In this document: positions 14,646 to 56,864 of the stretch, piece by piece
Layout of the letters: each line of letters begins with the position of its first letter
Position numbering within the stretch: the first letter of the stretch is position 1
DNA from: Squalus acanthias
Lineage: Eukaryota
Assembly: GCA_030390025.1 (NCBI GenBank)
Contig: CM059432.1
Span: forward strand, 72,542,001-72,606,000
Direction of reading: 5' to 3'
Length of the DNA stretch: 64,000 nt
Translations under genes and position numbers: made by a program
Notes under the pieces: model-generated
The model's database searches: none
What the model was told of the DNA's origin: nothing
What the model saw: the letters and a program-made list of their open reading frames with translations, nothing else

Positions 14646-15859
14646 ATAGGAACCATTTATTTCCTTTCATCCTGGTCCTCAGATTCAGAGGAAGGGCAGC
14701 CGCGGCAGCAGCAGAACCAGGCACAACAGCAGCACCAACAGTAGGAGCGCCAACCTCCTGCTCAGCCATCTGATGCTGCACAGGGCAGAAGGCGTCAGCG
14801 CAGAGCTGCACGTTGCCGCAGGAGATACCCCCAACACAGGGTTTACAGGCCGAGGATGACCTTCCTCCACATGACTGAGCAGCAGTGCCAAAGGAAGCTG
14901 AGACTTTCACGAGAGGTAGTCGGTGACATCTGCGCAATGCTGCACCAACACCTGGAGCCCAGAGGAGCGGGTGGACACCCCTTACCAGTGGCTGTCAAAG
15001 TCACCACCGCCCTCAATGTTTTTGCTTCAGGGTCCTTCCAGGGCTCATCAGCAGACATCAGCGGCATCTCCCAGTCGGCCGCACACACTTGCATCACGCA
15101 GGTAACCGATGCCCTCTTTGCAAAGTTGCACAATTACATCCACTTCTCAACGGATCAAGCAAGTGTAACCGCGCGTCTGTTGGCTTTGCAAATATGGCAG
15201 GCTTGCCAAGGGTGCAGGGCATCGTAGACTGCACACATGTAGCCGTTAGGGCACTCCATCACGACCCAGCTGTTTTTGTCAACCGCAAGGGCTTCCACTC
15301 CCTTAACGTCCAGCTGGTGTGTAACCACAGGAAGGACATTTTGCATGTTTGCATGAAGTACCCTGGCAGTTGCCATGACTCGTTCATCCTGCGGCAGTCT
15401 ACTGTGCCTCTGCTCTTCAATCCGCCAACCCAACTTTCCGGATGGCTACTTGGAGACAAGGGCTATCCCCTGAAGATGTGGCTGATGACGCCGTTGAGGT
15501 CATCGAACGAAGCTGAGGAGCGCTACAATGCCAGCCGCATTTCGACCAGATCCATCATCGGGCAAACCATCGGCTTGCTGAAGATACGATTCAGATGCCT
15601 TGACAGATCAGGTGGAGCCCTACAGTACTCAGCAGCCAGGGTCTCCAGAATCATCGTGGTCTGCTGTGCACTGCACAACATTGCACAGCATCGTGGCTTG
15701 CAGCTGCCTGAGAAACAAGTGGCTCAGCGCATAGCCTCCTCCGATGAGGAGGAGGAGGAAGAAGACCTTGCGGAGGCAGATGAACCAGCTGCAGCCGCAC
15801 ACGAGCACATTGCTGCCCGTGATGCAAGGGATGCACTAATCTTTGCCAGATTCGCTTAG
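14646..15859 (+). pseudogene. Harbinger DDE transposase (frameshift near 15175)
   Basis: [48 protein letters not shown]. Confidence 0.93.
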
Positions 15860-16143
15860 GTAGACGAATCAAACCCATGTGGCTGGCACCTTCTTATCAC
15901 ACCATACACAATGGACAAGAACCTGTGGGTTCCTATCACTCTGACCACCACCATTACAAATGCAAGTCGCCCTGAGCCCTCAATGTACAGCTTCCATTTC
16001 CCAGATCGCATAGACCAGAACTTCAACTGTTTGCCATCACTTCTGTTTAATCAATGCACAAAAGGATGACTGGCAAAAATTAAAGTCAACAAAAGACAAC
16101 AGAACAGAACACCCAAGTGACTACCCTTGTGACTAATTGTGCT

Positions 16144-18150: not shown

Positions 18151-21100
18151 GGCAGCAGTTGTTAGAGCGAAATCCACCATCAAATAATGAGAGAATGAAA
18201 CGAGGCTGCATGGGCCCCTTAAATGCAGTTGCCTCACAGACGTCAGCAGAGGCGAGTTGCAGACCCAAACCACTAATTGGCCAGGGGCGCGCGCACGCAG
18301 GGACTCAATTGCCCAAATTAGGGCAAAATTGCAATTTTTTACCGGCTGAAAGCGGCAGCGGGACTGGAACCCGCCGACCCGCACCCAACCCGCCACCAAT
18401 GAGAAAATCGCGGCCTTTGTGTCTGTCTTCATGGAAGAAGAAGCAAAAAACCTCCCGGAAATAGTGGAGAACCAAGGGTCTGCAGTGAACAGACAAATGG
18501 CAGATGGCTACTTGAACAAAAGAATTAAAACTGAAAGAAATTAGTATTAGTAAAAAAATAGTACTGGAGAAATTAATGGGACTGAAAGCCGATAAATCCC
18601 CTGGACCTGATGGCCTAAATCCTAGGGTTTTAAATGAGGTAGCTATGCAGATAGTGGCTGCATTGGTTGTCATCTTCCAAAATTCCTAGAACGGTTCCCG
18701 CGGATTGGAAGGTAGCAAATGTAACCCCACTATTTAAGAAAGGGGGAGAGAGAAAACAGGGAACTACAGACCAGTTAGCCTGACATCAGTAGTAGGAAAA
18801 ATGCTAGAATCTATTATTAAGGACGTAGTAACTTAGAAAATAATAATAGGATTGAGCAGAATTAACACTGATTTATGAAAGGGAAATTGTGTTTGATGAA
18901 TCCGTTAGAATTTTTTGAGGTTGTAACTAACAGAATAGATAAGGGGGAACCAGTGGATGTGGTGTATATGGATTTTCAGAAGGTATTCAATAAGGTGACA
19001 CACAGAAGTTATTAAACAAAATTAGGGCTCATGGGATTGGGGGTAATATACTAACATGGATTAAGGATTAGTTAACGGACAGAAAACAGATAGTAGGAAT
19101 AAATGAGTCATTTCCGGGTTGGCAGACTGTAACTAGTGGGGTACCACAAGGATCAGTGCTTGGGCCTCAGCTATTCACAATCTATATTAATGATTTGGAT
19201 GAGGGGACCAAATGTAATATATCCAAGTTTGCTGATGATACAAAGCTAGGTGGGAATGTAAGTTGTGAGGAGGATGCAAAGATATAGACAGGCTAAGTAA
19301 GTGGGCAAGAACATGGCAAATGGAATATAATGTGAAGAAATGTGAAGTTATCCACTTTGGTAGGAAAAATAGAAAAGCAGAGTTTTTTAAATGGTGAGAG
19401 ATTGGGAAATGTTGGTGGTCAGAGAGACCTGGGTGTCCTTGTACACGAATCACTGAAAGTTAACATGCAGGTACTGCAAGCAATTAGGAAAGCAAATGGT
19501 ATGTTGGCCTTTATTACAAGAGGATTTGAGTATAAGAGTAAAGATGTCTTACTGCAATTATATAGGCCCAGGTGAGACCACACATGTAGTATTGTGTACA
19601 GTTTTGGTCTCCTTACATAAGGAAGGATATACTTGCCACAGAGGGAGTGCAACGAAGGTTCACCAAACTGATTCCTGGGTTGGAGAGATTGAGTAGACTA
19701 GGCCTATATTCCCTGGAGTTTAGAAGAATGAGAGGTGATCTCATTGAAACATACAAAATTCTTACAGGGCTTGACAGGGTAGATGCAGGGAGGATGTTTC
19801 CCCTGGATGGGGAGTCTAGAACCAGGGGTCACAGTCTCAGAATAAGGGATCGACCATTTAGGACTCCGATGAGGTGACATTTCTTCACTCAGGGTGGTGA
19901 ATCTTTGGAATTCTCTACCCCAGAGGGCTGTGGAGGCTCAGTCGTTGAGTATATTCAAGACGGAGATTGATAGATTTTTAGATATTAAGGGAATCTTGGA
20001 ATATGGGGATAATGCAGGAAAGTGGAGTTGAGATAGAAGATCAGCCATGATCTTATTGAATGGCGGAGTGGGCTCAAGGGTCGAATGGCCTACTCCTGCT
20101 CCTATTTCTCATGTTCTTATGTTCTCCTCCCTTTTCACATGGTTCTACCTAAATGAGCTGCACACTGGATCACTTGGGTTCCTGAAGCCAACTGGGAGTC
20201 CAAGAGGAGTCTCTGCCTCCCTATCATAGAATCATACAGCACAGAAGAAGGCCATTTGGCCCATCATGTTCTGCCAGCTCTTTCAAAGAACAATCCAATT
20301 AGTCCCTTGCAAAATCTCTCCATTAGGTTTATCAGCTCTTCCAGTGGCAGGATGAGCAGAGTCTCATGTGTTGTCACACCAGAACTGTAACATCAGCTCC
20401 ACATCTTTGTCCTTTTCAGGTTGTGTTTTCCCTCCTCCCATTGTAGTGCAAGCAGCCCCTGCTACAATCAGAGTAGATCAAATGTGCATGGTTGACGGGA
20501 CTCACCACCTGCTGCAGAGTCTCAATCACCCTAACAAATGGAGAATTCATTCAGAAGTATGCATGGCAACTTTCAGACTTGGGTTTATTGTTTTAATAGA
20601 CATTTTTCCATCACCGAACCCATCTGTTTCTACTCCAGGCTGGTGGGTGAATTACCCTGAAGGTTTAATACTGCTTTTCCTGAAAGTGAATGGCCTGGAT
20701 TTTGTGGTCAGCGGCGAAGGAACGAGGCTCGCCTTTCACCTCGCTGACAGCTGCCCACATGTTTTTCTGGGCTTTAGTGCAGAGACTTGCTCTAATCCAG
20801 CGTCTGATCTAGCGCAGTGCCCTCTACAGGGCATCTGTGCCGTCTGTGAGCAGGCCAAGAAACTAGTCTCTTCAACCAGTCAGATTGAAGAATCCTCACT
20901 GAGACTCACAGGGGGAAAAATTCGGTTGGTTTGCGCCTCCCGTTAGCGCTCTAAGAGGGTGCTATTGGGGTGCAAAGCAACTAGCGCCAGGGCGCGGCAA
21001 TGTTTGCGCCGCTCGCGAAATTGACGAGATTTTGCGGCGGTGCAAAAGTTTACCGCCCCGATCTCCTGCGCCCGCAGATTGTGACGTCAGTCGAGCGTGT

Positions 21101-37980: not shown

Positions 37981-39235
37981 CTGCGGTTAAGTTTCTGGTT
38001 AATGGTGACCCCCAGGAAGTTGATAGTGGGGGATTCGGCAATGGTAATGCCATTGAATGTCAAGGGGAGGTGGCTAGACTCTCGCTTGTTGGAGATAGTC
38101 ATTGCCTGGCAATTCTGTGGCGCGAATGTTACCTGCCACTTATCATCCCAAGCCTGAACGTTGTCCAGGTCTTGCTGCATGCGAGCATGGACTGCTTCAT
38201 TGTCTGTGGAGTTGTGAATGGCGCTGAACACTGTGCAGTCATCAGCGAACATCCCCATTTCTGACCTTATGTTGGAGGGAAGGTCATTGATGAAGCAGCT
38301 GAAGATGGTTGGGCCTAGGACACTGCCCTGAGGAACTCCTGCAGTGATGATTGACCTTCAACCACCACAACCATCTTCCTTTGTGCTAGGTATGACTCCA
38401 GCCAGTGGAGCGTTTTCCCCCTGATTCCCATTGACTTCAGTTTTACTAGGGCTCCTTGATGCCACACTCGGTCAAATGCTGCCTTGATGTCAAGGGCAGT
38501 CACTCTCACCTCACCTCTGGAATTCAGCTCCTTTGTCCATGTTTGGACCAAGGCTGTAATGAGGTCGGGAGCCGAGTGGTCTTGGCGGAACCCAAACTGG
38601 GCATCAGTGAGCAGGTTATTGGTGAGTAATTGCCGCTTGATAGCACTGTTGATGACACCTTCCATCACTTTGCTGATGATTGAGAGTAGACTGATGGGGC
38701 GGTAATTGGCCGGGTTGGATTTGTCCTGCTTTTTGTGGACAGGACATACCTGGGCAGTTTTCCACATTGTCGGATAGCTGCCAGTGTTGTAGCTGTACTG
38801 GAACAGCTTGGCTAGTAGGTGCGGCTAGTTCTGGAGCTCAGTAGCCGGGACCCATAGCCTTTGCTGTATCCAGTGCACTCAGCCATTTCTTAATATCACG
38901 TGGAATGAATCGAATTGGCTGAAGACTGGCTTCTGTGATGGTGGGGACCTCGGGAGTAGGCCAATATGGATCATCCACTCAGCACTTCTGGATGAAAACG
39001 CTTCAGCCTTGTCTTTTGCACTCACGTGCTGGGCTCCACCATCATTGAGGATGGGGATATTCTTGGAGCCTCCTCCTCCCGTTAGTTGTTTAATGGTCCA
39101 CCACCATTCATGACTGGATGTGGCAGGACTGCAGAGCTTTGATCTGATCCGTTGATTGTGGGATCGCTTAGCCCTGTCTATAGCATGCTGCTTCTGAGCA
39201 TGCATCTAGTCCTGTGTTGCAGCTGCCCCAGGTTG

Positions 39236-41325
39236 TGTAAGGGGGGGCGTGTCTCAGACGGTGCTGGTGCGAGGTTAGGTCTTCGTTGCCTATACTATTG
39301 CTTGCTCTGGTCTCCGGCCAGCCTTTTTGCAATAAGCACCTGTGAGTGGTTCGATCCACTCGCCCTTACGGTTCTAACACTGGACTTAGGTGCAGGGAGC
39401 AGTAATGCAGAGAAAAACTCAAATAGACCCGGTTGAATAGTACGAAATGGAAATCTTTATTGCATGGCGTCTAAAATCATGAAATACATGTCATAGGCGC
39501 AAATCAAAGAGAGTACAAGTATACATACATTCATAAAGTTTGGTCTATGGAAATGGAGAACACACGGCACATCATAGAAAGGGGAACACATTATACCTTA
39601 ACCTTATTAAAAACCACCCTCCCTTAACATTATCTACACTACATCTAGATTTGTAGGATCGGAAAACATGCTCACCACTCATGTTACTTCGGAGATTTTA
39701 AAGTGGGGCACTCAGCTCGTTTCGCTGCAGCGCCTGACTGTCACGCGTTTGGAAGGGTCTCTGCACCCCACTTGTTTACTTTCGCTGCTGCGAAAAGCAG
39801 GCCAGACTCCCTGTTGTCATGAAGAACTCGACGGAACTCGGATAAAATTCAAAGAAGAGTCTTCCTGTGTTCGACACAGGTTATAGAAACATAGAATCTA
39901 GGAGCAGGAGTAGGCCATTCGGCCCGTCAAGCCTGCTCCACCATTCAATACGATCATGGCTGATCATCCAAGTCCAGTACCCTGTCCCTGCTTTAATCCC
40001 CACAGTACACATATCCCACCCTACCCCTGTAACCCCACATATTTAATTCCCCCTAACATATCCCATCCTATCCCCATAACCCCACATATTTAATCCCCCC
40101 CTAACACTAAGGGTCAATTTATCATAGCCAAATCAACCTAACCCGCACATTTTTGGACTGTGGGAGGAAACCGGAGCACCCGGAGGAAACCCACACAGAC
40201 ACGGGGAGAATGTGCAAACTCCACACAGACAGTCACCCGAGGTCAGATTCGAACCCGGGTCCCTGGCGCTGTGAGGCACCAGTGCTAACCACTATGCCAC
40301 CGTGTTGGTAGAACTCAAAGAAGAGTCCTGTATTTATATTTTCGGGCGCAGTCGGGGTTCACTGACCGTGGCGGCACGTGGATTTTCTTCTCGTCTTCTT
40401 CTCGTCTTCTTCTCCTCGGGCCTCCGGGTCCAGACACCGTTTACCGACACTCGGGATGGTGTACCCTGTTACTTGCCCTTGTCGGGGCGGCTCGTACCGA
40501 TTGAGCTCCACCCAACACTTGAATAACCGACCAGTGCGGCTAAGAGTCAAGAGTCAACAAAGTCCAGAGAGAAAATCAAGAGGCTGCCCGTCCAGGAGAG
40601 CGGCACCAGAGGATAAGAGTTCAGCCTGAGTCAAGAGTCAGCAGAGATAAGAGTCAAGAGTTCGGCAAGCGAATAAGAGAGCGATGGACATTTGTTCTCT
40701 ATAGTTATAGTGATGTGTCCTCTTATCTCCCGCTCAAATCTTAATGTTTGTCCTTTGTGTAATATTGGCGCTCAAAACTCCCAGCATGGGGCGGTTGTCT
40801 TCTTTAACGGGTTTCGGTAGCACCTGAAACTGGCCAACTATCCGTTAATGTTTTCCCCATTGTTGACCCAGCCAGGATGTGTATGAATCGTCTCCCTGAC
40901 TGGTTTTGGGGGCCCCCGAATACTTGCTTAATCACCCGTCGATGTCTCTCTCATTGTAGAGCCGGGGGGTTGTTTGTGTATTGATGTGTCTGGATGGGCC
41001 TTCGATTGCCCAGTACAATGATCCTTACTGTGCATAGGAAAACGATTCCAGCACTTATATCTTTGCTATTGTTTCAAATGCAAACGGGTTGCATCCTGTC
41101 TTTATCAGTGTTTACCGAGTATGATCCAATCTTATACTAAATGTATATTCAACGCCATTTTGTCTGCCCACTGTGTTTCTGGAAGCTTCTGCCACGATGC
41201 TCGGCGGCCATTTTACAGGCTTCTGTGTCCTTTACTATCAGGACAGCATTTCGTTTAATAAAACTGATCAAACGAATCTGCTTGTCTTGTGTTATTTTGA
41301 ATCGCGATAATTGCGAAACTTTACA
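39236..41325 (-). repeat. 3' LTR (contains a 418-bp SINE insertion)
   Basis: Matches the 5' LTR apart from scattered substitutions and the SINE; preceded by the PPT. Confidence 0.97.
39887..40304 (-). mobile_element. V-SINE (HE1-like) inserted in the 3' LTR
   Basis: tRNA head (TGGCATAGTGG, GGTTCGAATC), V-domain GGTTTCCTCCGGGTGCTCCGGTTTCCTCCCAC, CR1-type tail; absent from the 5' LTR. Confidence 0.9.
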
Positions 41326-41337
41326 GTCCCTCCTGTT
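41326..41337 (-). promoter_or_regulatory. Polypurine tract
   Basis: AACAGGAGGGAC immediately before the 3' LTR TGT. Confidence 0.75.
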
Positions 41338-43059
41338 GATGCGAATAACTCCGTTTATCGTATCAATTAAAAATGTTGGTGAGCAAAATTATCCCGATTC
41401 TCCACATCCAAACACTCCCGGTAATTAAACTATCCATGGCCTCCATGCAGTCCTCATTTCCCAGAGAAAATTACATTGTCTAACTTGGACAAATCGTAGG
41501 CAGCATTGCCTTTAAACTTACACTGCGTATACGCCTTCCAGGTGCGAAAGGCCGATGCCTCTCGCACCACCTGTATATGCATGTTTTATTATAAAAGGAA
41601 AAATAATCAAACCAACTGTTTTAAAAATACAAAAGTTACAAACTTAATCACAAATACTCATATCTAACAACAACTACAAAAACACACATGGAAAAATGGA
41701 GCGGCGTCATCCTGGCCGTTTACGCGGTACTTTCCTCGTTCACGCGCACGTAACGTTCTCTCCACTCCCCTGTGTTCTCCTGCCTTGTGAGGCGTTTGCC
41801 TCTCTTGCAGTGTACGACCAATAGGTACACTACAATTACAACTTGACACACTACCAAAATGTGGGAGGCTATCCTGATCCAGGACGGGACTTCAATATTA
41901 GTGAACAGATCCCACCACGGTGGGGTTACTATGTCTAATATCTCTGCCCCTGTCTCTACAGTCTTTTGTTCCAGGGTGTAAAAATGTTTCTGTGATACCA
42001 TGACGGCTTTTAAAATCTTGGTGAGGTGTTCAGGGAGAGGGGGAATGATGTACCCGAAATGCGCGATGAATCGCTGCAAGTCTGTGAAATTCTCTTTTAC
42101 TGTGAGGTGAACAGTGGATGGTTCAGGGATCGGGACAATTCGCTGCTGTGCCACTTGAACTTCAGCCCTGGGTTTGAAACAGAAATTGCTGTCACTCACC
42201 GGACACCGGCTGTGCTGTCCATGCTGGTATAACAACAGAAAACGCTGGAAAAACTCAGCAGGCCAGGCAGCATCCGTGGAGAGAGAAAGAGAGTTGACGT
42301 TTCAGGTCGATGACCTTTCATCAGAACTGGGAAGAGCTGGAAATCAAATAGATTTAAGGCCAGGGTAAAGCTGGGAAAAGGGGGAGGGGATAAAGGAACA
42401 AAGGAGGAGATGAAGAGACATTAAGAGACATTAAGAGATATGCGAGGCTAGAGGTGGTGTTAATGTGACAGATTAAGGCTGAATGAAGTGTGAAATCCAC
42501 TGGCAGAATGAAGGACAGCTGCCAGCTTCAAGGAGGAAAAAAAAGGTGGGGGGGACAAATAAAAGGGTGGATAAAATAAAATATAAATGTGATTGGAGCT
42601 GAGGTTATGATCTAAAATTGTTGAACTCGATATTGAGTCCAGAGGGCTGTAGCGTGCCTAAACGAAAGATGAGGTGCTGTTCCTCGAGCTTACGCTGAGC
42701 TTCCGTGGAACAGTGTAATAGGCCGAGGACGGTGAGGTCAGAGTGGGAGTGAAGCGGTGAATTAAAGTGACAGGCCACCGGGAGCTCGGGGTCCCCCTTA
42801 CGGACTGAACGGAGGTGTTCCGCAAAGCGGTCACCCAATCTGCGTTTGGTCTCCCCAATGTAGAGGAGTCCACATCGTGAGCAGCGAATACAGTATACTA
42901 AATTGCAGGAAGTACAAGTAAATCGCTGTTTCACCTGGAAGGGGTGTTTGGGGCCCTGGACAGTGGGAAGAGGGGAGGTATAAGGGCATGTGTTGCATCT
43001 CCTGCGCGTGCACGGGAAGGTGCCGGGCGAAGGGGAAGGGGTGCTGGGGGTGACTAACA

Positions 43060-43965
43060 TTGACTAACATTCACTACAAGCCCACCGACTCCCACAGCTA
43101 CCTGGACTACACTTCCTCCCACCCCGCCTCCTGTAAGGACTCTATTCCATTCTCCCAGTTTCTCCGTCTCCGCCGCATCTGCTCTGATGATGCCACCTTC
43201 CATACCAGTGCTTCCGACATGTCTTCCTTTTTCCTCAACCGAGGATTCCCCTCTACCGTGGTCGACACGGCCCTCGACCGTGTCCGTTCTATCTCCCGCA
43301 CATCTGCCCTCACCCCTGCCCCTCCCTCCCGGAACCACGATAGGGTTCCCCTTGTCCTCACCTTTCACCCCACCAGCCTCCACATTCAACGGATCATCCT
43401 CCGCCATTTCCGCCACCTCCAGCGTGATCCCACCACCAAACACATCTTCCCCTCACCTCCCCTTTCAGCATTCCGCAGGGACCGCTCCCTCCGCGACACC
43501 CTAGTCCACTCCTCTACCACCCCCAGCACCCCTTCCCCTTCGCCCGGCACCTTCCCGTGCACGCGCAGGAGATGCAACACATGCCCTTATACCTCCCCTC
43601 TTCCCACTGTCCAGGGCCCCAAACACCCCTTCCAGGTGAAACAGCGATTTACTTGTACTTCCTGCAATTTAGTATACTGTATTCGCTGCTCACGATGTGG
43701 ACTCCTCTACATTGGGGAGACCAAACGCAGATTGGGTGACCGCTTTGCGGAACACCTCCGTTCAGTCCGTAAGGGGGACCCCGAGCTCCCGGTGGCCTGT
43801 CACTTTAATTCACCGCTTCACTCCCACTCTGACCTCACCGTCCTCGGCCTATTACACTGTTCCACGGAAGCTCAGCGTAAGCTCGAGGAACAGCACCTCA
43901 TCTTTCGTTTAGGCACGCTACAGCCCTCTGGACTCAATATCGAGTTCAACAATTTTAGATCATAA
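43060..43965 (+). CDS. Penelope RT thumb + GIY-YIG endonuclease (5'-truncated)
   Basis: HYKPTD..YLDYTSSHP, SQFLRLRRICS, VYCIRC..C..LYIGET..RFAEH, GLN. Confidence 0.92.
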   Translation: MTNIHYKPTDSHSYLDYTSSHPASCKDSIPFSQFLRLRRICSDDATFHTSASDMSSFFLNRGFPSTVVDTALDRVRSISRTSALTPAPPSRNHDRVPLVLTFHPTSLHIQRIILRHFRHLQRDPTTKHIFPSPPLSAFRRDRSLRDTLVHSSTTPSTPSPSPGTFPCTRRRCNTCPYTSPLPTVQGPKHPFQVKQRFTCTSCNLVYCIRCSRCGLLYIGETKRRLGDRFAEHLRSVRKGDPELPVACHFNSPLHSHSDLTVLGLLHCSTEAQRKLEEQHLIFRLGTLQPSGLNIEFNNFRS

Positions 43966-44241
43966 CCTCAGCTCCAATCACATTTATATTTTATTTTATC
44001 CACCCTTTTATTTGTCCCCCCCACCTTTTTTTTCCTCCTTGAAGCTGGCAGCTGTCCTTCATTCTGCCAGTGGATTTCACACTTCATTCAGCCTTAATCT
44101 GTCACATTAACACCACCTCTAGCCTCGCATATCTCTTAATGTCTCTTAATGTCTCTTCATCTCCTCCTTTGTTCCTTTATCCCCTCCCCCTTTTCCCAGC
44201 TTTACCCTGGCCTTAAATCTATTTGATTTCCAGCTCTTCCC

Positions 44242-44278
44242 AGTTCTGATGAAAGGTCATCGACCTGAAACGTCAACT
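44242..44278 (+). ncRNA. Minimal hammerhead ribozyme in the Penelope terminal repeat (mirror copy at 42292-42328 on -)
   Basis: AGTT-CTGATGA-A-AGGTC-ATC-GACCT-GAAAC-GTC-AACT: core, stem I and stem II all present. Confidence 0.85.
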
Positions 44279-46509
44279 CTCTTTCTCTCTCCACGGATGC
44301 TGCCTGGCCTGCTGAGTTTTTCCAGCGTTTTCTGTTGTTATTTCGGATTTCCAGCATCCGCAGTATTTTGCTATCGTATTACTGTCCATGCTGGTAGTGT
44401 GGCGCTGCAGTGGTAACGCAATACGTTCCACCCCCTATGTATGCCACCTGTGGGGGCACATGATCTTGTGTCATTGCTTCCATGGTGCAATTCATGGGCT
44501 TTGCGCCAGCCGTTCTGAACCCGCATTGTGGTGTTAAAAAGGCATTCAAGTGCTGGGGACACAGTATGATGTGTGCTCCCTGGCCACGACAACCCGAAAG
44601 GTCGGTACCTGTCATCGTTTGCTCCCAGCGGATGACGTAAGGTGGGACCGCTGCGTAGCGAATGTGGGCTCCCCCCTGAATGACACCAATGTTCTCCACC
44701 CGGTACACTGGGGCGGGCTTTGCTGTGTCGCCCAACACCGGCATCCGTACTACTATCCCCATGATAGTGTGATTTGACCGTCCGCAGTCCACGGGGACTG
44801 GGTATGCCTCTGAGGCTAGCCTGAGCTGGCACGGGCTTAATGCGTTCTGAAAAGGGTGGAGCGCCTGCAGGTGTTTGTTACTTATCCAGGACGGGACCAA
44901 ACCTTGTTTTAAATCCTCCAAATTACTGCGGCCCTCGCCCAGTAACCACGCCCTGTATAATACGCACACCTCGTTCTGCGCAGCTTGATCGGATGCATTC
45001 CGATCTTCCCTGATCAGGGCATTTACCGTTCTCGCATGCTTCTCCAGCTCTGCTATAATCTCTTTTAAGTGTAGTGTCATGGCCTGGTCCTCATGTAACT
45101 CAGACCCTACTACCTTGTTCTCGTTTGTGAGGATGCTTTTTAACTGTGTTTTTAAACCGTTGATCTGGGTCTGCAGCTCCACATTGTCTAGAGCGTTGAC
45201 CACAGATGTTCCCGTATTAAAAGCAGTGAACACATCGTTCACAACACCCCTTCTTTGTCTCCCCACCTGACCCAAAACTTCGTGTGGTGTGGTGTATAAG
45301 CTTGTTTTGTCAACCTCTGCAAAATCAAACTCATAAAATTGCCTGAGCATGTTTGTTAACAGGACCTGGTACAATTGTTCCGTTTCTTTGGGGCACCACT
45401 CTGGTAAATGCACCTCGGTGAGATTTAGAATCACCGAGGCCACCGCGTAATGTATCCCTTGATATAGTATCTGATCTGTTGGCACCAGTACCAGACCATT
45501 CCCGGGCCCCTTAGTGGTTTTAGGGCACCCTTCCTCCTGAGCCAAAGCCACCGGAGTTGTGGGCGGAGACTTGCGTGGGCGTGTGATGAGTTCAGTGGCG
45601 TTTACCGGGATCGGGGAGAATGGAGCTCCGCACCCCCTGGTGCTGACATCCCACCTCATCCCTTTCCCGTCATCCTGCCACAGTCGTAGGAAAATTATGG
45701 ATATACCCTTGGGGCAAACATACTTCGATCCCCACATACACACATATATTCCCTCATCCGGTTCCCACCATTTGTCCCAACAGACTTTCAATTGTCCGTT
45801 AGTCCCCGTAATTGTCCGATGGGTATTGTTACCCAATCGCTCCCACTCGACCGAGGAATTTCTCATAGTCTTGCTTAATTTCCGTAACCACCACCATCGG
45901 CTCAATGGGACCTTCCCATTGCATGTCAAACAAATCCTTTTGCCGACGGTGACGCTGATTCTGGGTGCAATGATCCTCACCCTGGGACACAGTAAAGAAG
46001 TCTCTTTGTAGGCAAATCCGGATGCGCTGGAGTATTCCGTCGAATTCGTTCCCAGCCATCCCGGCCACCTTCCCTTGTGGAAATAAGTGGCGGTTTCCTC
46101 AGCCTCTCGCTCCCCGGTCCCATCCGTCGCGATGGGGGCCGTGTCCCCGGAGCAACCGAACACAACGACATCCTTGGTGAGGCCCCGATAGGCCAATCCA
46201 TATCCGATCGTTGCGAGCACTATCAGAATCCTTTCCATCTCTCCTGGTTCCTGTGATCAGATAAAATGATGTAGCCAGCCTCCCAAGAGTCTCTGGCTTT
46301 TGTGAAGGGTGAGCGGGTCCCTTGACCTCGTCTCACGTAAAAAGACATGTATGCTGGATAGACTTTAACTATTCCTATCACTAACTCCCATCATTTTACC
46401 ATTTACTTTTAAAATCAAACTACAAACTTACCAAACTAAAAAAAAACTATAAACTTAAACTTATCCTAAACTTAACTGTACAGCGCCGCCCGTTCCCAGG
46501 GCGGCCTAC

Positions 46510-49500
46510 CTAAATTCTGCGAAGGCTGCCACGAGCTTTTGCTAGTGGCGGGGGGGCACTGACCCCTTCCTTTGATCTGCCGCAGCCTGTCGCTGCTGCG
46601 CTGGGACTGGGATCTCCCTGGGCTGCCTTGAACTTACGCCTGGGGGTGTACGGGGGATTTGACCACGACTTCCTGGGCTGGGGTTTCCGACTTGACCTAC
46701 GGAGGGCTACCTTGGGCAAGATCTCCAGGGCCGACGGACCGGGAACCGAGACTTCCACCGTCACGGCCTGTGGTCCCACCACAGCCGCCGGCTCTGTCTC
46801 CCCTGGCTCCGCCCCCCTGGGCTCGGGATCTGCGGTTTCCGACTCCACCTTACTTGCTTCCCTAGTAAGTGGAACTCCACTCGCAATCCCTATCTCCCCT
46901 ATGCTTGGGTCGAGGGCGGAACCTCCGTCCTCCGACCCCACCACCTCTCCGATCGGGTCACTACCTTGGTTGAGCTCTCCGAGCTCTTCCTCATCTGAAT
47001 CCCAAGACCAAGAAAAGATCCTACACTTTTCCAAAATGTCTTCTCCCCTCACGGAGGCTGCTTTACCGGCCTGTGTGCCCTGCGGTTCTATCCGGGGCTG
47101 AGCGTCCCCACTCGCAGTTTTGGCCCCTGTGATTGGCCCCTGTGCACCCGGTTTATACAGCTTGCACTGGTTAATGTGGAACCATTTCGTGCGCCGGGGT
47201 ACCTTTACGGCATACACCATGGGACTCGCCTTATCTACAATACTGTAGGGTCCCATATACAGTGGTTCCAAACTCCCTACTCTGGCATAGTTCCTAACCA
47301 TGACCTGATCTCCGACTTCCCACTCCTGCTTCTTACGGGGTTCCAGCAACAGGCGATTGCCCTGCTGCTGTCTTCCCATGTTCCCAGCCGCCTGCTCGTA
47401 AACCTGCTTCAGGCGCTCCAAGAGGGTCTGGACAAACTTGTCCCGTTTCACCTCTTGGAGCTAACCCTCAGTGAGCACCGGGGCCAGTACATGGGTGGGG
47501 GTTCGCATGATCCTCCCAGTCATCACCTCGTACGGGGAATACCCCGTACTCTTTGACTGGTTGGCCCGGATTCCCATGAGGACTAGAGGCAGAACCTCCG
47601 CCCATTTTTGGGGCGAGTTCATAGTCTCTTTCCTCGGCTTTTCCTTGAGGGTCTGGTTCATGCGTTCAACAATCCCTGATGACTGGGGATTGTGCGCTAC
47701 GTGCCACTTCCCTTCAATGCCCAAAAGCATGAGGGTGTTCTGCATCACCTGGCCGGTGAAATAACTCCCTTGGTCTGACTCCACGAAACGGGGGAGTCCC
47801 CACCGCGAGAACACTTCCCGGACCAAGATCTTGGCAGTACCCAGCGCCGTAGCTGTTCTACAGGGGAAGGCTTCTACCCACTTGGAAAACACATCCACCA
47901 AGACGAGGCAGTATTTGTAGCCTCCCTGGGTGGTGGGCAGGGGCCCTATGTAATCGATCTGTATCGACTGCCATGGTCCCTCCACCCTCCTGATGTGCCC
48001 CATGTGCACTTTCCATTTCTGGGGGTCTGGGTTGTTTGCAGCGCACACAAGACAGCTTGCACAGAACTCGCGGACCTGCTCTCTGAGTCCCGGCCACCAT
48101 CCCGCCTGCTCTACCCGTTGCCAGGTAACCTCAGGCCCGGGGTGTCCTGCCCCTGGCCCCTCATGAGCCAACTGGAGGAATTCCCTCCTGTGCTGCTGCG
48201 GCACAACCCACTGTTCCTCGCGGAACAGCATGCCTTCTTTAACGGAGAGGGTTGCCGTACTGTACGGGCCCTCTACCTGCTTGCCCTCAGTAATCGTTCT
48301 GAGAACTGCTTTTAGGGCGGGATCCTGGTTCTGGACGGTCTTAAGGTCTAGGGGCAGTGCTACCCTGGTGTTCCCGGGATTCCCTTCCCTGCCTTGGATC
48401 GCTGCCACGGGTCCGGGTCCATAGGGGTCCCAGAAAATGCCGTTACGGGCACCCTCCCTGGCTAGCGCATCCGTCTGCTGGTTGCCCTCCCCGCGGGGTT
48501 CTGTGGAGGAGTGAGCCTTCACCTTATGGATGAAAATCTCCCCTTCCTCCCCTACTGCTGCTAGGATCTTTTCCAGCAAGGGCTTCACCGTTAAAGGTCG
48601 CCCGTCCGCGGAGGTGTATCCACGGCGGGACCAAATGGCCAGGTATTCCGTACACGAATTGCACGTAAACATACTGTCCGAACAAATCGTGTATGGGGTT
48701 GGGAAGATTTCTGGGTGGGTAACGACGTACGCCACCGTAGACAGCTCAGCCTGCTGTGCGCTCATCGTGCTGGGGAGTTTAATTGCCAAGGCAAGGTTTG
48801 CCGCAGGGTCATAAACTCCACACCCTGTGAGTCGTTCGCCAGCGGACACTGTGCTGGAACCATCAACATAAATCTCGCGACCTGTGGGATGTATCCCGGC
48901 CCGCAAACCTATGTTGACCTCCCACACCCCTTCCACCGAACACTGGTGGGCTGTTCCGGGGTATACCAGGTTGGCCGCGAGCTTGGGCTCGCAAAGACCT
49001 TTAACCCTAAGATCCATCTGGGAAAGGAGAAGGGTCCAGCGCGCAATGCGAGCGCTGCTTACGGTCCCATCCTTAATCCTCCCATCCAGAAGCATCTTGG
49101 TTGGCGTGTGATGGGTGAAGAGAGTGATGGGAGAGAGCCCTGTGAAGATCGCTGATCTTTTCACAGCCCAATGCGTGGCTAAAAGATGCCTTTCGCAATT
49201 GGAAAAACTCCTCTCCACATCCGTTAACACCCTGGATGAATAGACAACCAGCCTCAGCTTGCCGTGACGCTCTTGGAGCAGCACAGCGCTCAAGCTGTCT
49301 CCGCTGGCAGCTACCTCCAGGAAAAACTCCTCCCCCCCAATCTATGGCCCCTAAAGCTGGTGCGGTCTGCAGATCCCTTTTTAACTTCTCGAATGCTGCC
49401 TGACAACCCTCGTCCCAAGACCACTCCACTCCCTTATGGAGGAGTCGGAGCAGCGGAGCTGCTGTGGCCGCATAGTCCTCGATGAAGTCTCTACAGTAAC

Positions 49501-50824
49501 CGGTCAGTCCCAGAAAGGACCTCACACCCGTTATGGTGTTGGGAATCGGTAACTCCTGCACCGACTCCCTCCTAGCCTTATCTATGGCTCTTTCCCCAGC
49601 GCGAATGGTCAGACCCAGGAATTTTACTTCCTGCTGACCGATACGTGCTTTCTTAGGGTTAACTTTAAAACCCTTCCTCGCTAGCAGCTCCAATAACTCG
49701 GCTAGCAGTGGTCCATGCTCCTCCCTTGAGTCCGTGAACAGGAGCAAATCATCCACGTACTGCACTATCTGATTGGGCTGACTAAACTCCTTTAAACTTC
49801 CTGCCATACACTGATGGAAAATACTGGGGCTGTTGTGGAAACCCTGTGGCAAACAGTTCCATGTGTACTGTTGTCCTTTGAAAGTAAAGGCAAACTTGTA
49901 CTGGTCCTCTCGCTGCAGCGGGATGGACCAAAAACCGTTCGAGATATCCAGCACCGTGAACGTGGTCGCGGACGCTGGGATACTCCCTATTAGGTCAGCA
50001 ACTGCTGCTACTGTGGGCGCGCAGGCGGGGATGTTACTGTTAAGGACTCTGTAGTCCACCGTGGCCCTCCACGAATTATCCGGCTTCCTTACCGGCCATA
50101 ACGGGGAGTTCACGTGTGTGGCTATCGGCCTCAACACACCCTGCTGCACCAATGAGGACATTGCTGTCTCCATGTCGGGTTCTGCTTCTTTGGGGAAGTT
50201 ATACTGCTTTTGGGGCCGGGTCATGGGGTCCCCGTCTATGCTGACCTCAAACCCGGTAACCCTCCCACAATCGTGCTTGTGGGTTGCAAACGCGTGCATA
50301 TTATCTGACACGTACGTTTGCATGTCCGTTGGGACATCCGCGACCATAAGCCCGAGGTCGTAACCTCCGGATGGCTTCATGGTACACAGGGCCCCTTTAC
50401 CTTCCTTCCCTGGGATTACAACTACCTTGCCTTTCCCACCCTTGGCTCCCCAGAGACAATGATTCCTAAGGTCCACGAGGATCCCGTGTTCCGCTAGGAG
50501 ATCCGATCCGAGGATACCTCTGCCACCCCCCTCTTGCCATTTCATCAGTATGCACTTCCATGTGGTGTGGAGTGCTCCTAAATGAATGGAGAGCAGAATG
50601 GAGAACGCGCCAGCCTGCTCTTTTCCCGTGAACCCCGCTAATGTGAATGGGACCTTGGTAGACAGTGGTGAGTCAAAGGGGCTATCTGTATGAATCACGG
50701 TGCATGAAGCGCCCGTGTCCAACAAGTAACTACCCTTCTGCTTCTCCACCTCCATCTCCACCAGGGGTCGCTTCCACGCATCATAGCTGAGCGGACACAG
50801 GTAAACGGGCTGCGCAGGCTTTAG
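46510..50824 (-). pseudogene. pol: pol: protease, RT, tether, RNase H, integrase (one frameshift, one stop)
   Basis: LLDTGAS; LPQG, YVDD; IYVDGS..QAEL..SDS..KVKAH; HHCC; IDY..SDQG..VERMN; GPY; frameshift in the G-run near 49335; TAG at 47461. Confidence 0.95.
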
Positions 50825-51211
50825 TCATTGGGTACCGGTGGACGGGGTTGTGGCATCTGTGGGGCCGGTAGCGACTGCCACTTTCCTGTGCGAAATCATA
50901 AGGGACGGCATGGCTCCCAACATTGATTCTATCGCATCGGGATGGATAGGCACACCAGCTCCTTTCTCGGAGACAGGCGCTTGGGTTCGGACCGCGGGAG
51001 CTCTGTCCCTGGAGTCCTTCCAGGGATTCCTGCAGTTTTTACGCCAGTGACCTGTCTTCCCGCACCCGTAACAAACACCACTGGTTTGTGGGGCGCGATT
51101 TCCCTCCTGATGCCACTCTTTCTGAGCCGGAGCTGCGGGCTTTGCCTCATGCACCTTTCCCTTAAGGGGACGCGCTCCCATGCTCCTAGTGTTCCGATAC
51201 CCTATGGTGAG

Positions 51212-51340
51212 CTTCACCTGAGGAAGGAGCGATAGTTCCGAAAGCTTGTGATTTCAAATAAAACTGTTGGACTATAACCTGGTGTTGTGCGACCTCTCAA
51301 TTTTGTCCACCCCAGTCCAACACCGGCATCTCCGCATCAC
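51212..51340 (+). mobile_element. Short Penelope-derived insertion with minimal hammerhead (51215-51250) inside gag
   Basis: CAC-CTGAGGA-A-GGAGC-GATA-GTTCC-GAAAGCTT-GTG; flanked by GAG repeats; homologous to the 21297 and 57775 copies. Confidence 0.85.
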
Positions 51341-52761
51341 GAGTCGATTTAGGACAGACTCCTCCGTTGTGGCGGGGTTAGTGGGATCAAACCACGCTCT
51401 GGCCTGCTCCCTGACGGCTGGCAAGCTGTTGGCTACTAGACACCTGAGCCAATGAGCTTTCCCGGCGCCGTCCAAGCGGTGGTGCGCTGGCGCACCTGGG
51501 CAGCTACGCTGGTATACTGGCCACAGTCTGTCGGCGAAAACCTTCGGGGGTTCTCCCTCCATCTGTACAGTCTGACTCAATCTGACGAACGGACCTTCGT
51601 CATCCGCCCCTAACACTTCTAGGACCTCGTCCCGTAACTCCCCATAGGTTTTATTTCCCTTCTTGCTCTCGTCGGAGAGACACTGAAGGATCGAGCTATC
51701 TAAAGAGAACAGCAACATTTTGGTCTTTTCCTCATCGTCGCAACCATTAATTGCTGCGGTCTGTTCTACTTCTCTAAAATGTACGGAAGGGTCATCTGAC
51801 TCGGACAGCTTCCGTACATGGCTAATCATTGCTCTCAGCTGGTGTGAGCTGTGGGGCAATACAAGTTGGTTCAGGATATCCCCGTCTGCCCCATTGTCCG
51901 CATTCGGGCCTCTCTTGTGACCTCGGAGCGGACACATCGGTCCCGGTCTCAACGCTACCTCCGGGGATTGTCCTACCTCGGGAACCTTCTTCTCTATTTC
52001 CACCACTTCCTCCCTTACCCAGGTTGCCGAATAGCTGGGTGGCGCGGAGGGCACAGTGGCAGATACCTCTTCTGCCTTTTCCGGTAGGGATTTTGGGAAT
52101 TCCCTACATACCTGTGGCTGGCTCGCTGACGGGTTGATGAGACACACCAAGCCGTTTGCCTTACTCAGGGCCTCTCTTAGGTTCCCTATCTCCCTCTGGC
52201 AAACACTGTGGTCGGCTCCCTCATGCCTATCCTCGAGGGCCATCTTGTATGCCGCCCTAACTCCCTTCAAGCTTTCTTTCTGGGCTTTTATCTGGTTAGC
52301 TAGGCGGATACACCGTTCTCTAATTCTACCCTCGTTTAATTTTGCTTCCTTGACCTGACATTCTAGGTAATCAATTTTAGCCTCATGGTGGTTGGCTACT
52401 ATTTGGCGTTCCTGATGTAACGTATTCAATGATGCAATGAGTTTTTGTCCTCCCGTGACCTTTTCCTCCATCTCAACTTCCAATTCCCTGATCTGAGCTG
52501 CATGTGCTGCAATGGCCTGGTCCGAAAGTTGGACTTGCTTCTTGTAGCACATCAGCCAGACCGCTTTCTCTACCGACTTCTTATGTTCTTTACTGCCTGT
52601 CCATTTGATGGCGGCGTCTAGCGGACGCTTATCCATCAGTAGGTCACTTATCCACTTTTTGGTTAAGTTAACCTTCCCAAACACATAGTCGGCTACCCTC
52701 TCATCCATCACATTTCGCCTATTCAAACCAGGGTCTAAAACATTACTCTCCTGCTGCCAAT

Positions 52762-52779
52762 GTCCTGCCGCGGTCGCCA
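52762..52779 (-). promoter_or_regulatory. Primer-binding site, tRNA-Arg(TCG)-type
   Basis: TGGCGACCGCGGCAGGAC, complementary to the recalled vertebrate tRNA-Arg-TCG 3' end GTCCTGCCGCGGTCG-CCA; 5 nt from the LTR. Confidence 0.85.
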
Positions 52780-52784
52780 TTTTC

Positions 52785-54457
52785 TGTAAGGGGGGGCGTG
52801 TCTCAGACGGTGCTGGTGCGAGGTTAGGCCTTCGTTGCCTATACTATTGCTTGCTCTGGTCTCCGGCCAGCCTTTTTGCAATAAGCACCTGTGAGTGGTT
52901 CGACCCACTCGCCCTTACGGTTCTAACACTGGACTTAGGTGCAGGGAGCAGTAATGCAGAGAAAAACTCAAATAGACCCGGTTGAATAGTACGAAATGGA
53001 AATCTTTATTGCATGGCATCTAAAATCATGAAATACATGTCATAAGTGCAAATCAAAGAGAGTACAAGTATACATACATTCATAAAGCTTGGTCTATGGA
53101 AATGGAGAACACACGGCACATCGTAGAAAGAGGAACACATTATACCTTAACCTTATTAAAAACCACCCTCCCTTAACATTACCTACACTATGTCTAGATT
53201 TGTAGGATCGGAAAACATGCTCACCACTCGTGTTACTTCGGAGATTTTAAAGTGGGACACTCAGCTCGTTTCGCTGCAGCGCCTGACTGTCACGTGTTTG
53301 GAAGGGTCTCTGCACCCCACTTGTTTACTTTCGCTGCTGCGAAAAGCAGGCCAGACTCCCTGTTGCCATGAAGAACTCGACGGAACTCGGATAAAATTCA
53401 AAGAAGAGTCTTCCTGTGTTCGACACAGGTTGTAGTCGGTAGAACTCAAAGAAGAGTCCTGTATTTATATTTTCGGGCGTGGTCGGGGTTCACTGACCGT
53501 GGCGGCACGTGGATTTTCTTCTCGTCTTCTTCTCGTCTTCTTCTCCTCGGGCCTCCGGGTCCAGACACCGTTTACCGACACTCGGGATGGTGTACCCTGT
53601 TACTTGCCCTTGTCGGGGCGGCTCGTACCGATTGAGCTCCACCCAACACTTGAATAACCGACCAGTGCGGCTAAGAGTCAAGAGTCAACAAAGTCCAGAG
53701 AGAAAATCAAGAGGCTGCCCGTCCAGGAGAGCGGTACCAGAGGATAAGAGTTCAGCCTGAGTCAAGAGTCAGCAGAGATAAGAGTCAAGAGTTCGGCAAG
53801 CGAATAAGAGAGCGATGGACATTTGTTCTCTATAGTTATAGTGATGTGTCCTCTTATCTCCCGCTCAAATCTTAATGTTTGTCCTTTGTGTAATATTGGC
53901 GCTCAAAACTCCCAGCATGGGGCGGTTGTCTTCTTTAACGGGTTTCGGTAGCACCTGAAACTGGCCAACTATCCGTTAATGTTTTCCCCATTGTTGACCC
54001 AGCCAGGATGTGTATGAATCGTCTCCCTGACTGGTTTTGGGGGCCCCCGAATACTTGCTTAATCACCCGTCGATGTCTCTCTCATTGTAGGGCCGGGGGG
54101 GGTGTTTGTGTATTGATGTGTCTGGATGGGCCTTTGATTGCCCAGTACAATGATCCTTACTGTGCATAGGAAAACGATTCCAGCACTTATATCTTTGCTA
54201 TTGTTTCAAATGCAAACGGGTTGCATCCTGTCTTTATCAGTGTTTAGTGAGTATGATCCAATCTTATACTAAATGTATATTCAACGCCATTTTGTCTGCC
54301 CACTGTGTTTCTGGAAGCTTCTGCCACGATGCTCGGTGGCCATTTTACAGGCTTCTGTGTCCTTTACTATCAGGACAGCATTTCGTTTAATAAAACTGAC
54401 CAAACGAATCTGCTTCTCTTGTGTTATTTTGAATCGCGATAATTGCGAAACTTTACA
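52785..54457 (-). repeat. 5' LTR (1673 bp)
   Basis: Direct repeat of 39236-41325; followed on the - strand by the PBS. Confidence 0.97.
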
Positions 54458-56864
54458 GTTGGCACCTCATTTTTAGGTATGCCTGGTGCTGTTCCTGGCA
54501 TGCTCTTCTACACTCATTGTTGAACCAGGGTTCGTCCCCTGGCTTGATGGTAAATTGAGGGATGTGCCAGGCCATGAGGTTACAGATTGTGGTGGAATAC
54601 AATTCTGCTGCTGCCCCACAGCACCTCATGGATGCCCAGTTTTGAGCTGCTAGATCTGTTCTGAATCTATCCCATTTAGCACGGTGGTAATGCCACACAA
54701 CACGATGGAGGGTGTTCTCATTGTTGAAGACAGGACATCATCTCCACAATAACTGTGCAGTGGTCACTGCTACCATGAACAGATGCATCAGTGACAGGTA
54801 GATTGGTGAGGGCAAGGTCAAGTAGGTTTTTCCCCTCACCACCTGTCGCAGGCCCAGACTGGCAGCTATGTCCTTCAGGACTCGGCCAGTAGTGGTGCTA
54901 CCGAGCCACTCTTGGTGATGGACATTGAAGTCCCCCACCCAGAGTACATTCTGTGCCCTTGCTCTTCTCAGTGCTTCTTCCAAGTGGTGTTCAACATGGA
55001 GGAGTACTGATTCATCAGCTGAGGGAGGGCAGTACGTGGTAATCAGCAGGAGGTTTCCTTGCCCATGCTTGACCTGAAGCCACAAGACTTCATGGTGTCT
55101 CTGGAGTCAATGTTGAGGACTCCCAGGGCCACTCCTTCCCGACTGTATACCACTGTGCCACCACCCTTGGTGGGTCTGTCCTGCCGGTGGGACAGGACAT
55201 ACCCAGGAATGGTGATGGAGGAGTTTGGGACATTGGCTGAAAGGTATGATTCTGTGAGTATGACTATGTCAGGCTGTTGCTTAGACTAGTCTGTGGGACA
55301 GCTCTCCCAATTTTGGCACAAGTCCCCAGATGTTGGTGAGGAGGACTTTGCAGGGTTGACTGGGCTGGGTGTGCCGTTGCCGTGTCCGTAGCCGGTGCCG
55401 AGGTCGATGCCGGGTGGTCCGTCCAGTTTCATTCTTATTATTTTGTTTCGTAGCGGTTTGTTACAATTGAGTGACTTGCTAGGCCATTTCAGAGGGCAAT
55501 TAAGAGTCAACCACATTGCTGTGGGTCTGGAGTCACATATAGGCCAGACCAGGTAAGGACAGCAGATTTCCTTCCCTAAAGGACATTAGTGAACCAGATG
55601 GGTTTTTACGACAATCCGATAGTTTCATGGTTACCGTTACTGATACTAGCTTTTTATTCCAGATTTATTTAATTAACTGAATTTAAATCCCCAGCTGCCG
55701 TGGTGGGATTTGAACTCACGTCTCATGGATCACTAGTCCAGGCCTATTGGATTACTAGCCCAGTGACATTACCACTATGCTACCATTCCCATAAGTAGCA
55801 CAGTGGTGCAGCGCCACTGAGTGCAAGGATGTGACTTTTCACTCATAATTCCCTCGTAGCATTGTGTTCCGAGTTTCTGCCTAATTCCCACAGCAAATCG
55901 CTGAATGGAACGCAAGCTCCTATGCAGGAGCAAGGGAAGAAAAGCCATTCCTGGGCAGCTCTGGAGCACATCCAAGTTGCTGGTTCCAAACCGCACCGGT
56001 GGAAGCCTGGGTGCTGGCCCCATTAACTTCAGTTGGCGCATTGCCCGTGGAAATGGGAAGAAGAATAAAAGTATGCTTACCCTCAGTTAAAACTCACATT
56101 TTTAAAATTCCATTTGTCTACCAGTTTTTAACATCATAATTCATCATAATTTATCCCTTCAGTGATTTGGCTTTTTAACAAAATATTGGAAAAATTATAT
56201 TGAACGATGATGTAAGCCATAAGCAAAAGCAAGAAATGTAATATTATCTTGTATTTTTAGACCTATAATAGGCTCGACGCAGTACAATGCTTGAATCCAA
56301 AACAATGTCAAAAGTCATCTCCCCCCCCCCCCCCCCCCCCCCAAAATGAAATCTGGCCTGGGGTCAAAGAAGTTCTGCTCCCCCACTCACCCACAGCCGT
56401 GTACTAATTTGGAGCCTACCTCTGCCCCACTGATGTAGTTTCTCTGCCTTTGTTTCCCCTGTCCCCACCCTCTTCCTCTAAGGGTGGACTGGTTCCCCGA
56501 AAAGTCAGCGAATTTTTCGGGATTCCCATGGAAAGGGGGGAGGGGGTGGCGGTGATAATACAGCGCTTTGGAACCATTCATGAGGACACTTGGGAAATTT
56601 TCCATATGGTCTATCTGCCCCGGCCTTCCTCTCCTTCCTGCTTGTGTAATTGTTTGTGCGAGGAGGGCAGAGAACCTTCTTAATGAGATTGAACAGGATC
56701 TTTTCATATTTTACATTGTTCTCTTGATTTAATCTAACCATATTTTATTTAACATTAAGATACTAGCCTTTTTTGTGTATGTGAGAATAATTAGCTTCAC
56801 TCCAAGGTTCTCTTGGGTGAAGCAGTGCAACATTATATAAATATCGCCACATATACTACACTGC

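Follow-up and report, generated by a model that had tools for sequence, protein, structure and literature searches.

A Squalus acanthias endogenous retrovirus with a probably basal, SnRV-like reverse transcriptase and a predicted F-type envelope protein

What kind of retrovirus left the provirus that lies on the minus strand at 39236-54457 of a 64,000-nucleotide stretch of Squalus acanthias DNA (GCA_030390025.1, contig CM059432.1, 72,542,001 to 72,606,000; hereafter the window, to whose positions all coordinates refer)? A preliminary description of the locus took it for a young lokiretrovirus (Loki). Our analysis indicates that it is very probably a dead germ-line member of a large family of endogenous retroviruses (ERVs), with a reverse transcriptase (RT) in the basal canonical SnRV-like or "Huo" grade and an envelope protein (Env) predicted to be of the F type. 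Judged by sequence, the family and its frog and coelacanth relatives appear to belong to that grade. As the description had proposed, this is likely a cartilaginous-fish provirus of a family that is probably undescribed: Env relatives occur in sharks and rays, and no matching description was found. Repeat collections may already list it under a name of their own.

Reverse transcriptase, tether and integrase

Pro and pol occupy three stretches of the window:

49346-50824, minus strand: protease (DTG) and RT (YVDD); RVP E 4e-5, RVT_1 E 1.5e-36
47464-49341, minus strand: tether (degenerate Ty3-type RNase H), second RNase H, integrase HHCC and core
46510-47460, minus strand: integrase C-terminal (GPY/SH3-like) domain and long variable tail

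The tether matched PF17917 (E 1.8e-17), with the catalytic Asp positions of the Ty3-type RNase H replaced, and the second RNase H placed after it matched PF00075 (E 7.6e-19), in agreement with the decayed and intact pair described earlier. RT trees were built from 77 rows (including three Loki and eight gypsy-like rows), from 39 rows and, under a mixture model, from 36 rows. The Loki references (L005, L010 and L013) are fish-like metagenome contigs, three of 12 motif-matching loci carrying Loki motifs. Foamy, gamma, epsilon, delta, gypsy-like and caulimovirus rows were taken from viral contigs and labelled by size and grouping, not by name; 22 of 61 viral reference loci were used from one search and 11 of 76 from another. 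The SnRV reference (P0017/L004, 10,688 nt) was identified by its motif identity with a published alignment row.

In the 77-row tree, Loki formed a clade (100/100) sister to a second clade holding all other retroviruses, the element included (100/99), and the element's position inside canonical retroviruses received support of 99 in the 39-row tree and 97 in the mixture-model tree. Published placement also has Loki as sister to other retroviruses (PMC7947760). Uniting the element with Loki RTs was rejected by the approximately unbiased test (p-AU 0.0017, at a cost of 45 log units), as was uniting it with epsilon/gamma RTs (p-AU 0.013), whereas a clade with SnRV was not (p-AU 0.25). The RT carries LPQGFHNSP, as in SnRV, and lacks the signature motifs of Loki (RCPFGY-type or MPFGY, and SRWPM-type, in the alignment of PMC9040795) and of Odin (LPFGY, by eye). 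Its identity was 51-52% to the nearest Pols, those annotated NYNRIN-like in frogs and coelacanth; a second comparison gave 52-53% to Pols of coelacanth and of unnamed origin, 44% to SnRV and 33% to Loki. A search of the source genome for Loki RTs returned none above 40% among 136 scored, the top four loci carrying the canonical LPQGF, and the Loki motif pattern had no match in the source genome or in the viral contigs. The RT phylogeny proposed as a check thus upheld one half of the earlier expectation, a position outside Ty3/gypsy and epsilonretroviruses, and went against the other, membership in Loki.

That the element is a true lokiretrovirus, which would be the first in cartilaginous fish, is therefore highly improbable. 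Its tether is well preserved (41% identity to Loki), its integrase is Loki-like (42%), and the two Envs are homologous, as detailed below. Set against this are the RT results and a tether tree that held Loki apart (97/98); in addition, the element has a Gag zinc knuckle, whereas the Gag of Loki L010 had no Pfam match. Env relatives were found in Chiloscyllium punctatum and Scyliorhinus torazame, both among the six cartilaginous-fish genomes that were screened for Loki with none positive (PMC7947760). The dual RNase H and F-like Env, which had been read as marks of Loki, are not diagnostic because all retroviruses have the former and foamy viruses also have the latter. The motif ERHLLA, likewise taken as a Loki mark, is present by eye in CmiERV-I of the elephant shark.

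An errantivirus-like, env-carrying Ty3/gypsy element in place of a retrovirus has negligible probability. The top Atlas Env cluster holds the Baculo_F/Gypsy families, and errantiviruses commonly carry an F-type env (10.1101/2023.10.26.564294). However, two branches of support 100 divide the RT from the eight gypsy-like rows of the 77-row tree, which refutes this reading, and foamy and MLV RTs outscored Ty3 in a PDB ranking (182-184 versus 126 bits). Ty3/gypsy elements and errantiviruses have an RT in Metaviridae and a single active RNase H; the element fits neither, having a dual RNase H in the order protease-RT-tether-RNase H-integrase.

Within canonical retroviruses, the mixture-model RT tree (96) and the tether tree (95/97) put the element's grade below SnRV and class I. 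The integrase tree, which had no CGIN1 row, was a polytomy with Loki inside an unordered frog and coelacanth set (84/82). Loki integrase has been reported as closest to CGIN1/NYNRIN (PMC7947760), and the best Pol matches of the element are annotated NYNRIN-like. Foamy rows formed their own clade without the element (100/100, 77-row tree).

A close likeness in a cartilaginous-fish host is CmiERV-I, whose RT, pre-RT and tether motifs are alike by eye (LDISNGFWSIPL, LPQGFHNSP, THKHDCG, CERHLLA). CmiERV lineage I was placed with SnRV by Han 2015 (PMC4422223), and SnRV-like ERVs constitute clade Huo (PMC6001957, PMC4977317). CmiERV-I is a single old copy with a gamma-type Env (immunosuppressive domain and CX6CC, by eye), another primer site and LTRs (long terminal repeats) of about 0.8 kb, whereas the element has an F-type Env, an Arg primer site, 1.67-kb LTRs and thousands of copies. 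At least one further Huo-type RT family with many near-identical copies and open frames of about 1185 aa (L215 and L217, on G000:C11 and C5) was also seen in the genome and is possibly younger.

The envelope protein and what it may say about retroviral Env origins

Env is encoded in two parts, separated by a later insertion:

44382-46229, minus strand: N-terminal 616 aa; signal peptide, Ig-V-like domain, F-type core, long helix, beta domains
41720-42214, minus strand: C-terminal part; heptad region, transmembrane helix (19-aa hydropathy 2.6), short tail

The Ig-V-like domain spans aa ~91-182, an RQRR cleavage site lies within the F-type core, and the CX6CC hallmark of gamma-type Envs is absent. 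From a 30-row alignment, the first 616 residues were modelled (pLDDT 52.6, with core blocks at 70-89; pTM 0.41). When this model was compared with the PDB by Foldseek, ranks 1 to 24 were all paramyxovirus or pneumovirus F proteins (best E 4.8e-6), and F-type glycoproteins were also top in BFVD. The top match in VIA was foamy Env 8rm0 (Z 8.5, root-mean-square deviation [rmsd] 5.9, 182 aligned), the next seven were F proteins, and these were followed by Ig V domains on residues 91-182 (Z 6.3, rmsd 2.4, 84 aligned). Alignment-free Atlas features gave 0.95 for Baculo_F/Gypsy and 0.94 for Fusion_gly. The VIA Z values are middling, yet the three structure searches and the Atlas features concur on a predicted F-like fold, so that the earlier view of Env as F-like rather than gamma- or beta-type stands, on a low-confidence model. 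We therefore predict a class Ib, F-type fusion protein with an Ig-like arm. Such an Env would be cleaved at RQRR and fuse membranes in the manner of paramyxovirus F, the Ig-like arm being a likely attachment module.

Profile comparisons connect this Env to those of other retroviruses. Against Loki Env, hhalign gave 98% (E 1.4e-13, 262 columns, 18% identity), and the profile scored 57 bits, with a maximum of 2.8 in 500 shuffles. Against SnRV Env, hhalign gave 68-91% over 282-290 columns (score 61, versus at most 26 in 25 shuffles) and hmmsearch 6.4 bits, a value reached by none of 500 shuffles, a walleye-virus open reading frame (ORF) scoring 5.5. Pairwise BLASTP was not significant for either (SnRV E 0.12, Loki E 0.010), nor was anything significant in Gag comparisons with the two. 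Lokiretroviruses are characterised by an Env resembling Mononegavirales F with an RXKR-type site, and the env of Loki L005 itself matches PF00523 (E 1.2e-5). For the SnRV Env core (L004:7643-9055), the model matched F first (E 2.7e-6), a result that is biased because its alignment included shark rows; an independent Atlas score of 0.88-0.89 is a lead only, VIA returned mostly coiled coils with foamy Env best (Z 6.8), and the core had no homologs among shorter proteins. The Env core of SnRV, an exogenous cultured virus, is thus predicted to be F-like. Foamy Env is F-like too, a class Ib fusogen with paramyxovirus and pneumovirus F (PMC11468914). Named relatives of the element's Env come from Rhinoraja (79%), Pristiophorus, Mustelus, Chiloscyllium, Heterodontus, Scyliorhinus and one frog (P0068).

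Two observations concern walleye epsilonretroviruses: their Env models matched the F-type model weakly (ranks 25 and 27, E about 1e-3), and the partial WDSV ORF (L062), at 5.5 bits, was the top natural control, so epsilon Env may also be F-related. Separately, two sawshark gene models (P0004 and P0005) fuse env pieces to Niban-like and zinc finger proteins and are probably annotation artefacts or exonised env.

Compared across known systems, Loki and the element share gag-pol-env, a tether with RNase H, possibly an affinity to NYNRIN/CGIN1-like integrases, and an F-like Env with an RXXR site; the element differs in an RT outside the Loki clade, an Env without a PF00523 match but with an extra Ig-like N-terminal arm, a Gag zinc knuckle and the lack of smc, a gene that only some Loki members have (PMC7947760). 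SnRV and the element share 44% RT identity, a coiled-coil Gag with one zinc knuckle, an in-frame gag-pol stop and homologous, predicted F-like Envs, whereas SnRV has UAG-GGC at the stop, a far more diverged tether and integrase, an Env of 1134 aa versus about 780, and accessory ORFs, none of which were seen in the element. Foamy Env and paramyxovirus or pneumovirus F have in common with the element's Env a predicted beta-domain core and a long heptad helix. The foamy leader peptide and receptor-binding insert are missing from the element, its RT fell outside the foamy clade of the 77-row tree, and its gag and pol are joined by an in-frame stop, whereas foamy pol is expressed from a spliced RNA. 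Epsilon- and gammaretroviruses combine a class I RT with a CX6CC Env, of which the element has neither, and Odin retrotransposons, whose RT is sister to Loki, lack the env that the element carries.

Retroviral Env ancestry becomes directly testable here because a canonical RT is paired with a Loki-homologous Env whose profile reaches SnRV Env, the Env of a virus currently filed among orthoretroviruses. It is possible, and we propose it tentatively, that the element belongs to the grade that branched first among canonical retroviruses, lying, as in the mixture-model RT and tether trees, between lokiretroviruses and SnRV, foamy viruses and class I, and retaining an ancestral kit of little-decayed tether, NYNRIN-like integrase and F-type envelope. 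The first retrovirus would then have had an F-type Env, because this type is found in Loki, this grade, SnRV and foamy viruses (with weak hints in walleye epsilonretroviruses), and gamma- and beta-type Envs would be a later replacement. Independent env gain by canonical retroviruses and Loki has been preferred, as their Envs showed no similarity (PMC9040795); if the ancestral reading is true, this scenario of Wang and Han 2022 is overturned, and SnRV offers a living example in which it can be tested.

A recombinant origin, in which a Huo-grade gag-pol acquired its env, and perhaps its integrase, from Loki or another F-bearing element so that the F type is not ancestral, seems unlikely. Env swaps are indicated in this Pol lineage, since CmiERV-I combines matching Pol motifs with a gamma-type Env by eye, and in cartilaginous fish the lineage then bears Envs of either class; the Env profile is also closer to Loki Env than to SnRV Env, and the integrase tree leaves Loki among the frog and coelacanth relatives. 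Against it, an Env identity to Loki of 18% argues that env was not captured from Loki recently. Moreover, several independent captures would be needed, because F-like Env occurs also in SnRV, foamy viruses (PMC11468914) and the frog relative P0068.

Several results weigh against a basal SnRV-like retrovirus with an F-type Env. Sisterhood with SnRV was unstable (84/92 in the 77-row tree, apart in the 39-row, mixture-model and tether trees), a clade with foamy RTs was not rejected (p-AU 0.084), and the trees hold three Loki RTs and are without Odin, ERV-L, beta/lenti and fish-foamy references. Bit scores against Loki exceed those against SnRV for the tether (86 versus 52), integrase (206 versus 129) and Env (57 versus 6). 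Env matched no Pfam family, PF00523 included, its putative fusion peptide is weakly hydrophobic, and its model is truncated and of low confidence. An unusually stable RNA fold was not found downstream of the gag-pol stop (z +0.49), and an RT word was 5.4 times commoner in the genome than an env word.

The full-text literature searched, a body with few subscription papers and without Repbase or Dfam, does not describe an F-type Env for SnRV or for SnRV-like ERVs. Excerpts of PMC6001957, PMC4977317, PMC12193657, PMC10435555, PMC13709493, PMC12583693 and of bioRxiv 2023.10.26.564294, 2024.03.17.585361 and 2021.11.23.469661 contain no F-type Env on an SnRV-like Pol, the last covering gamma-type Env only.

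Proviral layout and expression signals

The remaining features of the provirus are as follows:

52785-54457, minus strand: 5' LTR, TG...CA, 1673 bp by self-comparison
52762-52779, minus strand: primer-binding site, 18/18 complementary to host tRNA-Arg(TCG)+CCA, with a 5-nt spacer after the LTR
50828-52708, minus strand: gag, broken by an insertion; N-terminal coiled-coil-like region, predicted capsid region, one CCHC zinc knuckle
50822-50827, minus strand: in-frame gag-pol stop TGA followed by CTA, a likely read-through signal
41326-41337, minus strand: short purine-rich tract preceding the 3' LTR
39236-41325, minus strand: 3' LTR, split by a tRNA-derived short interspersed element (SINE) of ~417 bp at 39887-40303
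39232-39235 (left, plus strand) and 54458-54461 (right): 4-bp target-site duplication GTTG on both flanks

Self-comparison of the window revealed two long direct repeats, the LTRs, whose minus-strand ends are TG...CA. The insertion site is a long interspersed element (LINE) whose two flanking halves are contiguous in another copy in the window. The order LTR-primer site-gag-pro-pol-env-purine tract-LTR together with the target-site duplication is the canonical layout of Retroviridae, and these repeats, ends, duplication and domain matches bear out the complete LTR-gag-pol-env-LTR element first described. The ORF list held no additional frame of at least 100 aa between the genes, and hence no smc gene. 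Over 1673 aligned sites the LTRs differ by 28 substitutions (25 transitions and 3 transversions) and one 1-nt indel, for a Kimura two-parameter divergence of 0.017; 13 of the 28 lie in CG/TG/CA context. The count by eye of 25 to 30 differences, many of them CpG-type transitions, was accurate. The SINE in the 3' LTR may be HE1-like.

The Gag zinc knuckle matched zf-CCHC in Pfam (E 2.7e-4), the capsid region had no Pfam match, and the coiled-coil match (E 0.002) may be compositional. Reverse transcription would be primed by tRNA-Arg. The 5-nt spacer recurred in 18 of 30 family copies, no primer site being found in the other 12, and the site matches that of SnRV at 13 of 18 positions. Hart is said to have described, in 1996, an Arg primer and a coiled-coil Gag for SnRV. 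The 3' end of tRNA-Arg has 422 genomic matches, and all three that were checked are tRNA-Arg(tcg). The primer tRNA gene is itself highly amplified, with long tandem arrays of tRNA-Arg(TCG) and tRNA-Ser(GCT) with a period of ~1.62 kb at G000:C26:38.99-42.2 Mb (L002, L003).

Of 61 genomic matches, 60 have TGA as the gag-pol stop and one has TAA, which argues that the stop is viral and not decay, and TGA-CTA occurred together in 24 of 30 fetched copies. Gag would end at UGA, with Pol likely made by read-through of UGA-CUA. In Sindbis-type alphaviruses this is the read-through context known as type II. For retroviruses, excerpts of a 2026 review list other contexts (UAG-G, UGAAGA, UGACGA and UGAAGU; PMC13517186). 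In two Loki loci the gag and pol frames also abut at a stop (L010:3739-3744, L005:7653), suggesting read-through in lokiretroviruses. Env would be translated from a spliced RNA: a splice-acceptor-like AG preceded by a pyrimidine tract lies at ~46242, upstream of the env start. The splice joint was not seen in four contig sets of uncertain kind, which has no bearing on expression.

Family size, age and later damage

Genome-wide, exact 20-mer matches numbered 2126 for RT, 394 for env and 2843 for the LTR; a word from the LTR end was too subfamily-specific (6 matches). Because RT matches so exceed env matches, this env may have been absent while much of the wider family spread. The RT word is clustered in places, for example at G000:C1:113-125 Mb, and env-less or env-swapped subfamilies may exist. 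Thirty of the 39 best other RT matches were sampled, a set biased toward the window copy. Gag was open in 11 of these copies, pol in five, env in five and all three in none of the 30. In 22 copies with LTR pairs the median K was 0.0144 and the minimum 0.003, with no identical pair; one pair (K 0.19), likely not a true pair, was retained in the median. Target-site duplications were 4 bp in 11 of these pairs, never 5 or 6 bp, and could not be read in 11; the integrase would accordingly leave 4-bp duplications.

Among variants shared by at least three of ~30 copies, the nonsynonymous-to-synonymous ratio was 0.06-0.19 in every gene and 0.06 in the env core (12 nonsynonymous versus 56 synonymous), compared with 0.27-0.59 for singletons, by simple counting with no transition correction. 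This indicates purifying selection on shared variants, env included, the pattern expected from repeated infection, and the F-type Env likely spread the family by re-infection. It is rather unlikely that the family grew mainly by germ-line amplification, through retrotransposition or complementation, with env as a passenger. The 5.4 to 1 excess of the RT word favours this, as do several sampled copies in which part of env is missing, but shared env variants are strongly synonymous among env-bearing copies.

A mammalian rate of 2.2e-9 per site per year dates the copy to 3.9 million years (My), and the 2.2e-10 that Han 2015 assumed for sharks (PMC4422223) dates it to 39 My; at the 7e-10 per generation measured in the epaulette shark (PMC10587355), it is about 12 million generations. 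Because the age spans ~4 to ~39 My by rate, recent infectivity is not established, and calling the provirus young and recently infectious was an overstatement given an age of ~4 to 40+ My, three later insertions and no identical LTRs.

Damage to the coding regions comprises four lesions, all of which had been recognized at first inspection:

about 51209-51340, no strand assigned: high-copy repeat insertion in gag, ~130 bp, with in-frame stops, possibly Penelope-derived
49330-49345, minus strand: G-run frameshift near 49340 at the RT/tether border, seen against 29 of 30 other copies
47461-47463, minus strand: premature TAG in integrase, private among sampled copies (21-mer context in 0 of 30 others)
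42230-44381, no strand assigned: Penelope-like insertion of ~2.15 kb splitting env, with GIY-YIG, inverted repeat and 15-bp duplication

With the SINE, which the first list of lesions lacked, damage after integration amounts to three insertions, one frameshift and one stop. The in-frame gag-pol TGA is a fifth stop, but it is a family feature and not a lesion. A further break suspected in the pol tail did not hold up, as the same tail ending occurs in nine other copies (lengths 249-308). Both insertions had been called Penelope-type. This is supported for the env insert, which has a GIY-YIG match (E 2.4e-4, just below the Pfam cut-off), the 15-bp duplication and a perfect 824-bp inverted repeat; because the arms are 100% identical, this insertion into an older provirus is very recent. 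For the gag insert, a high-copy repeat, the assignment is no more than plausible; an Rfam scan of 38000-58500 found no hammerhead or other family, the gag insert included. Elsewhere in the window, an old inverted pair of large LINE-like repeats lies at 4471-8400 and 14400-18415, with 77-80% identity.

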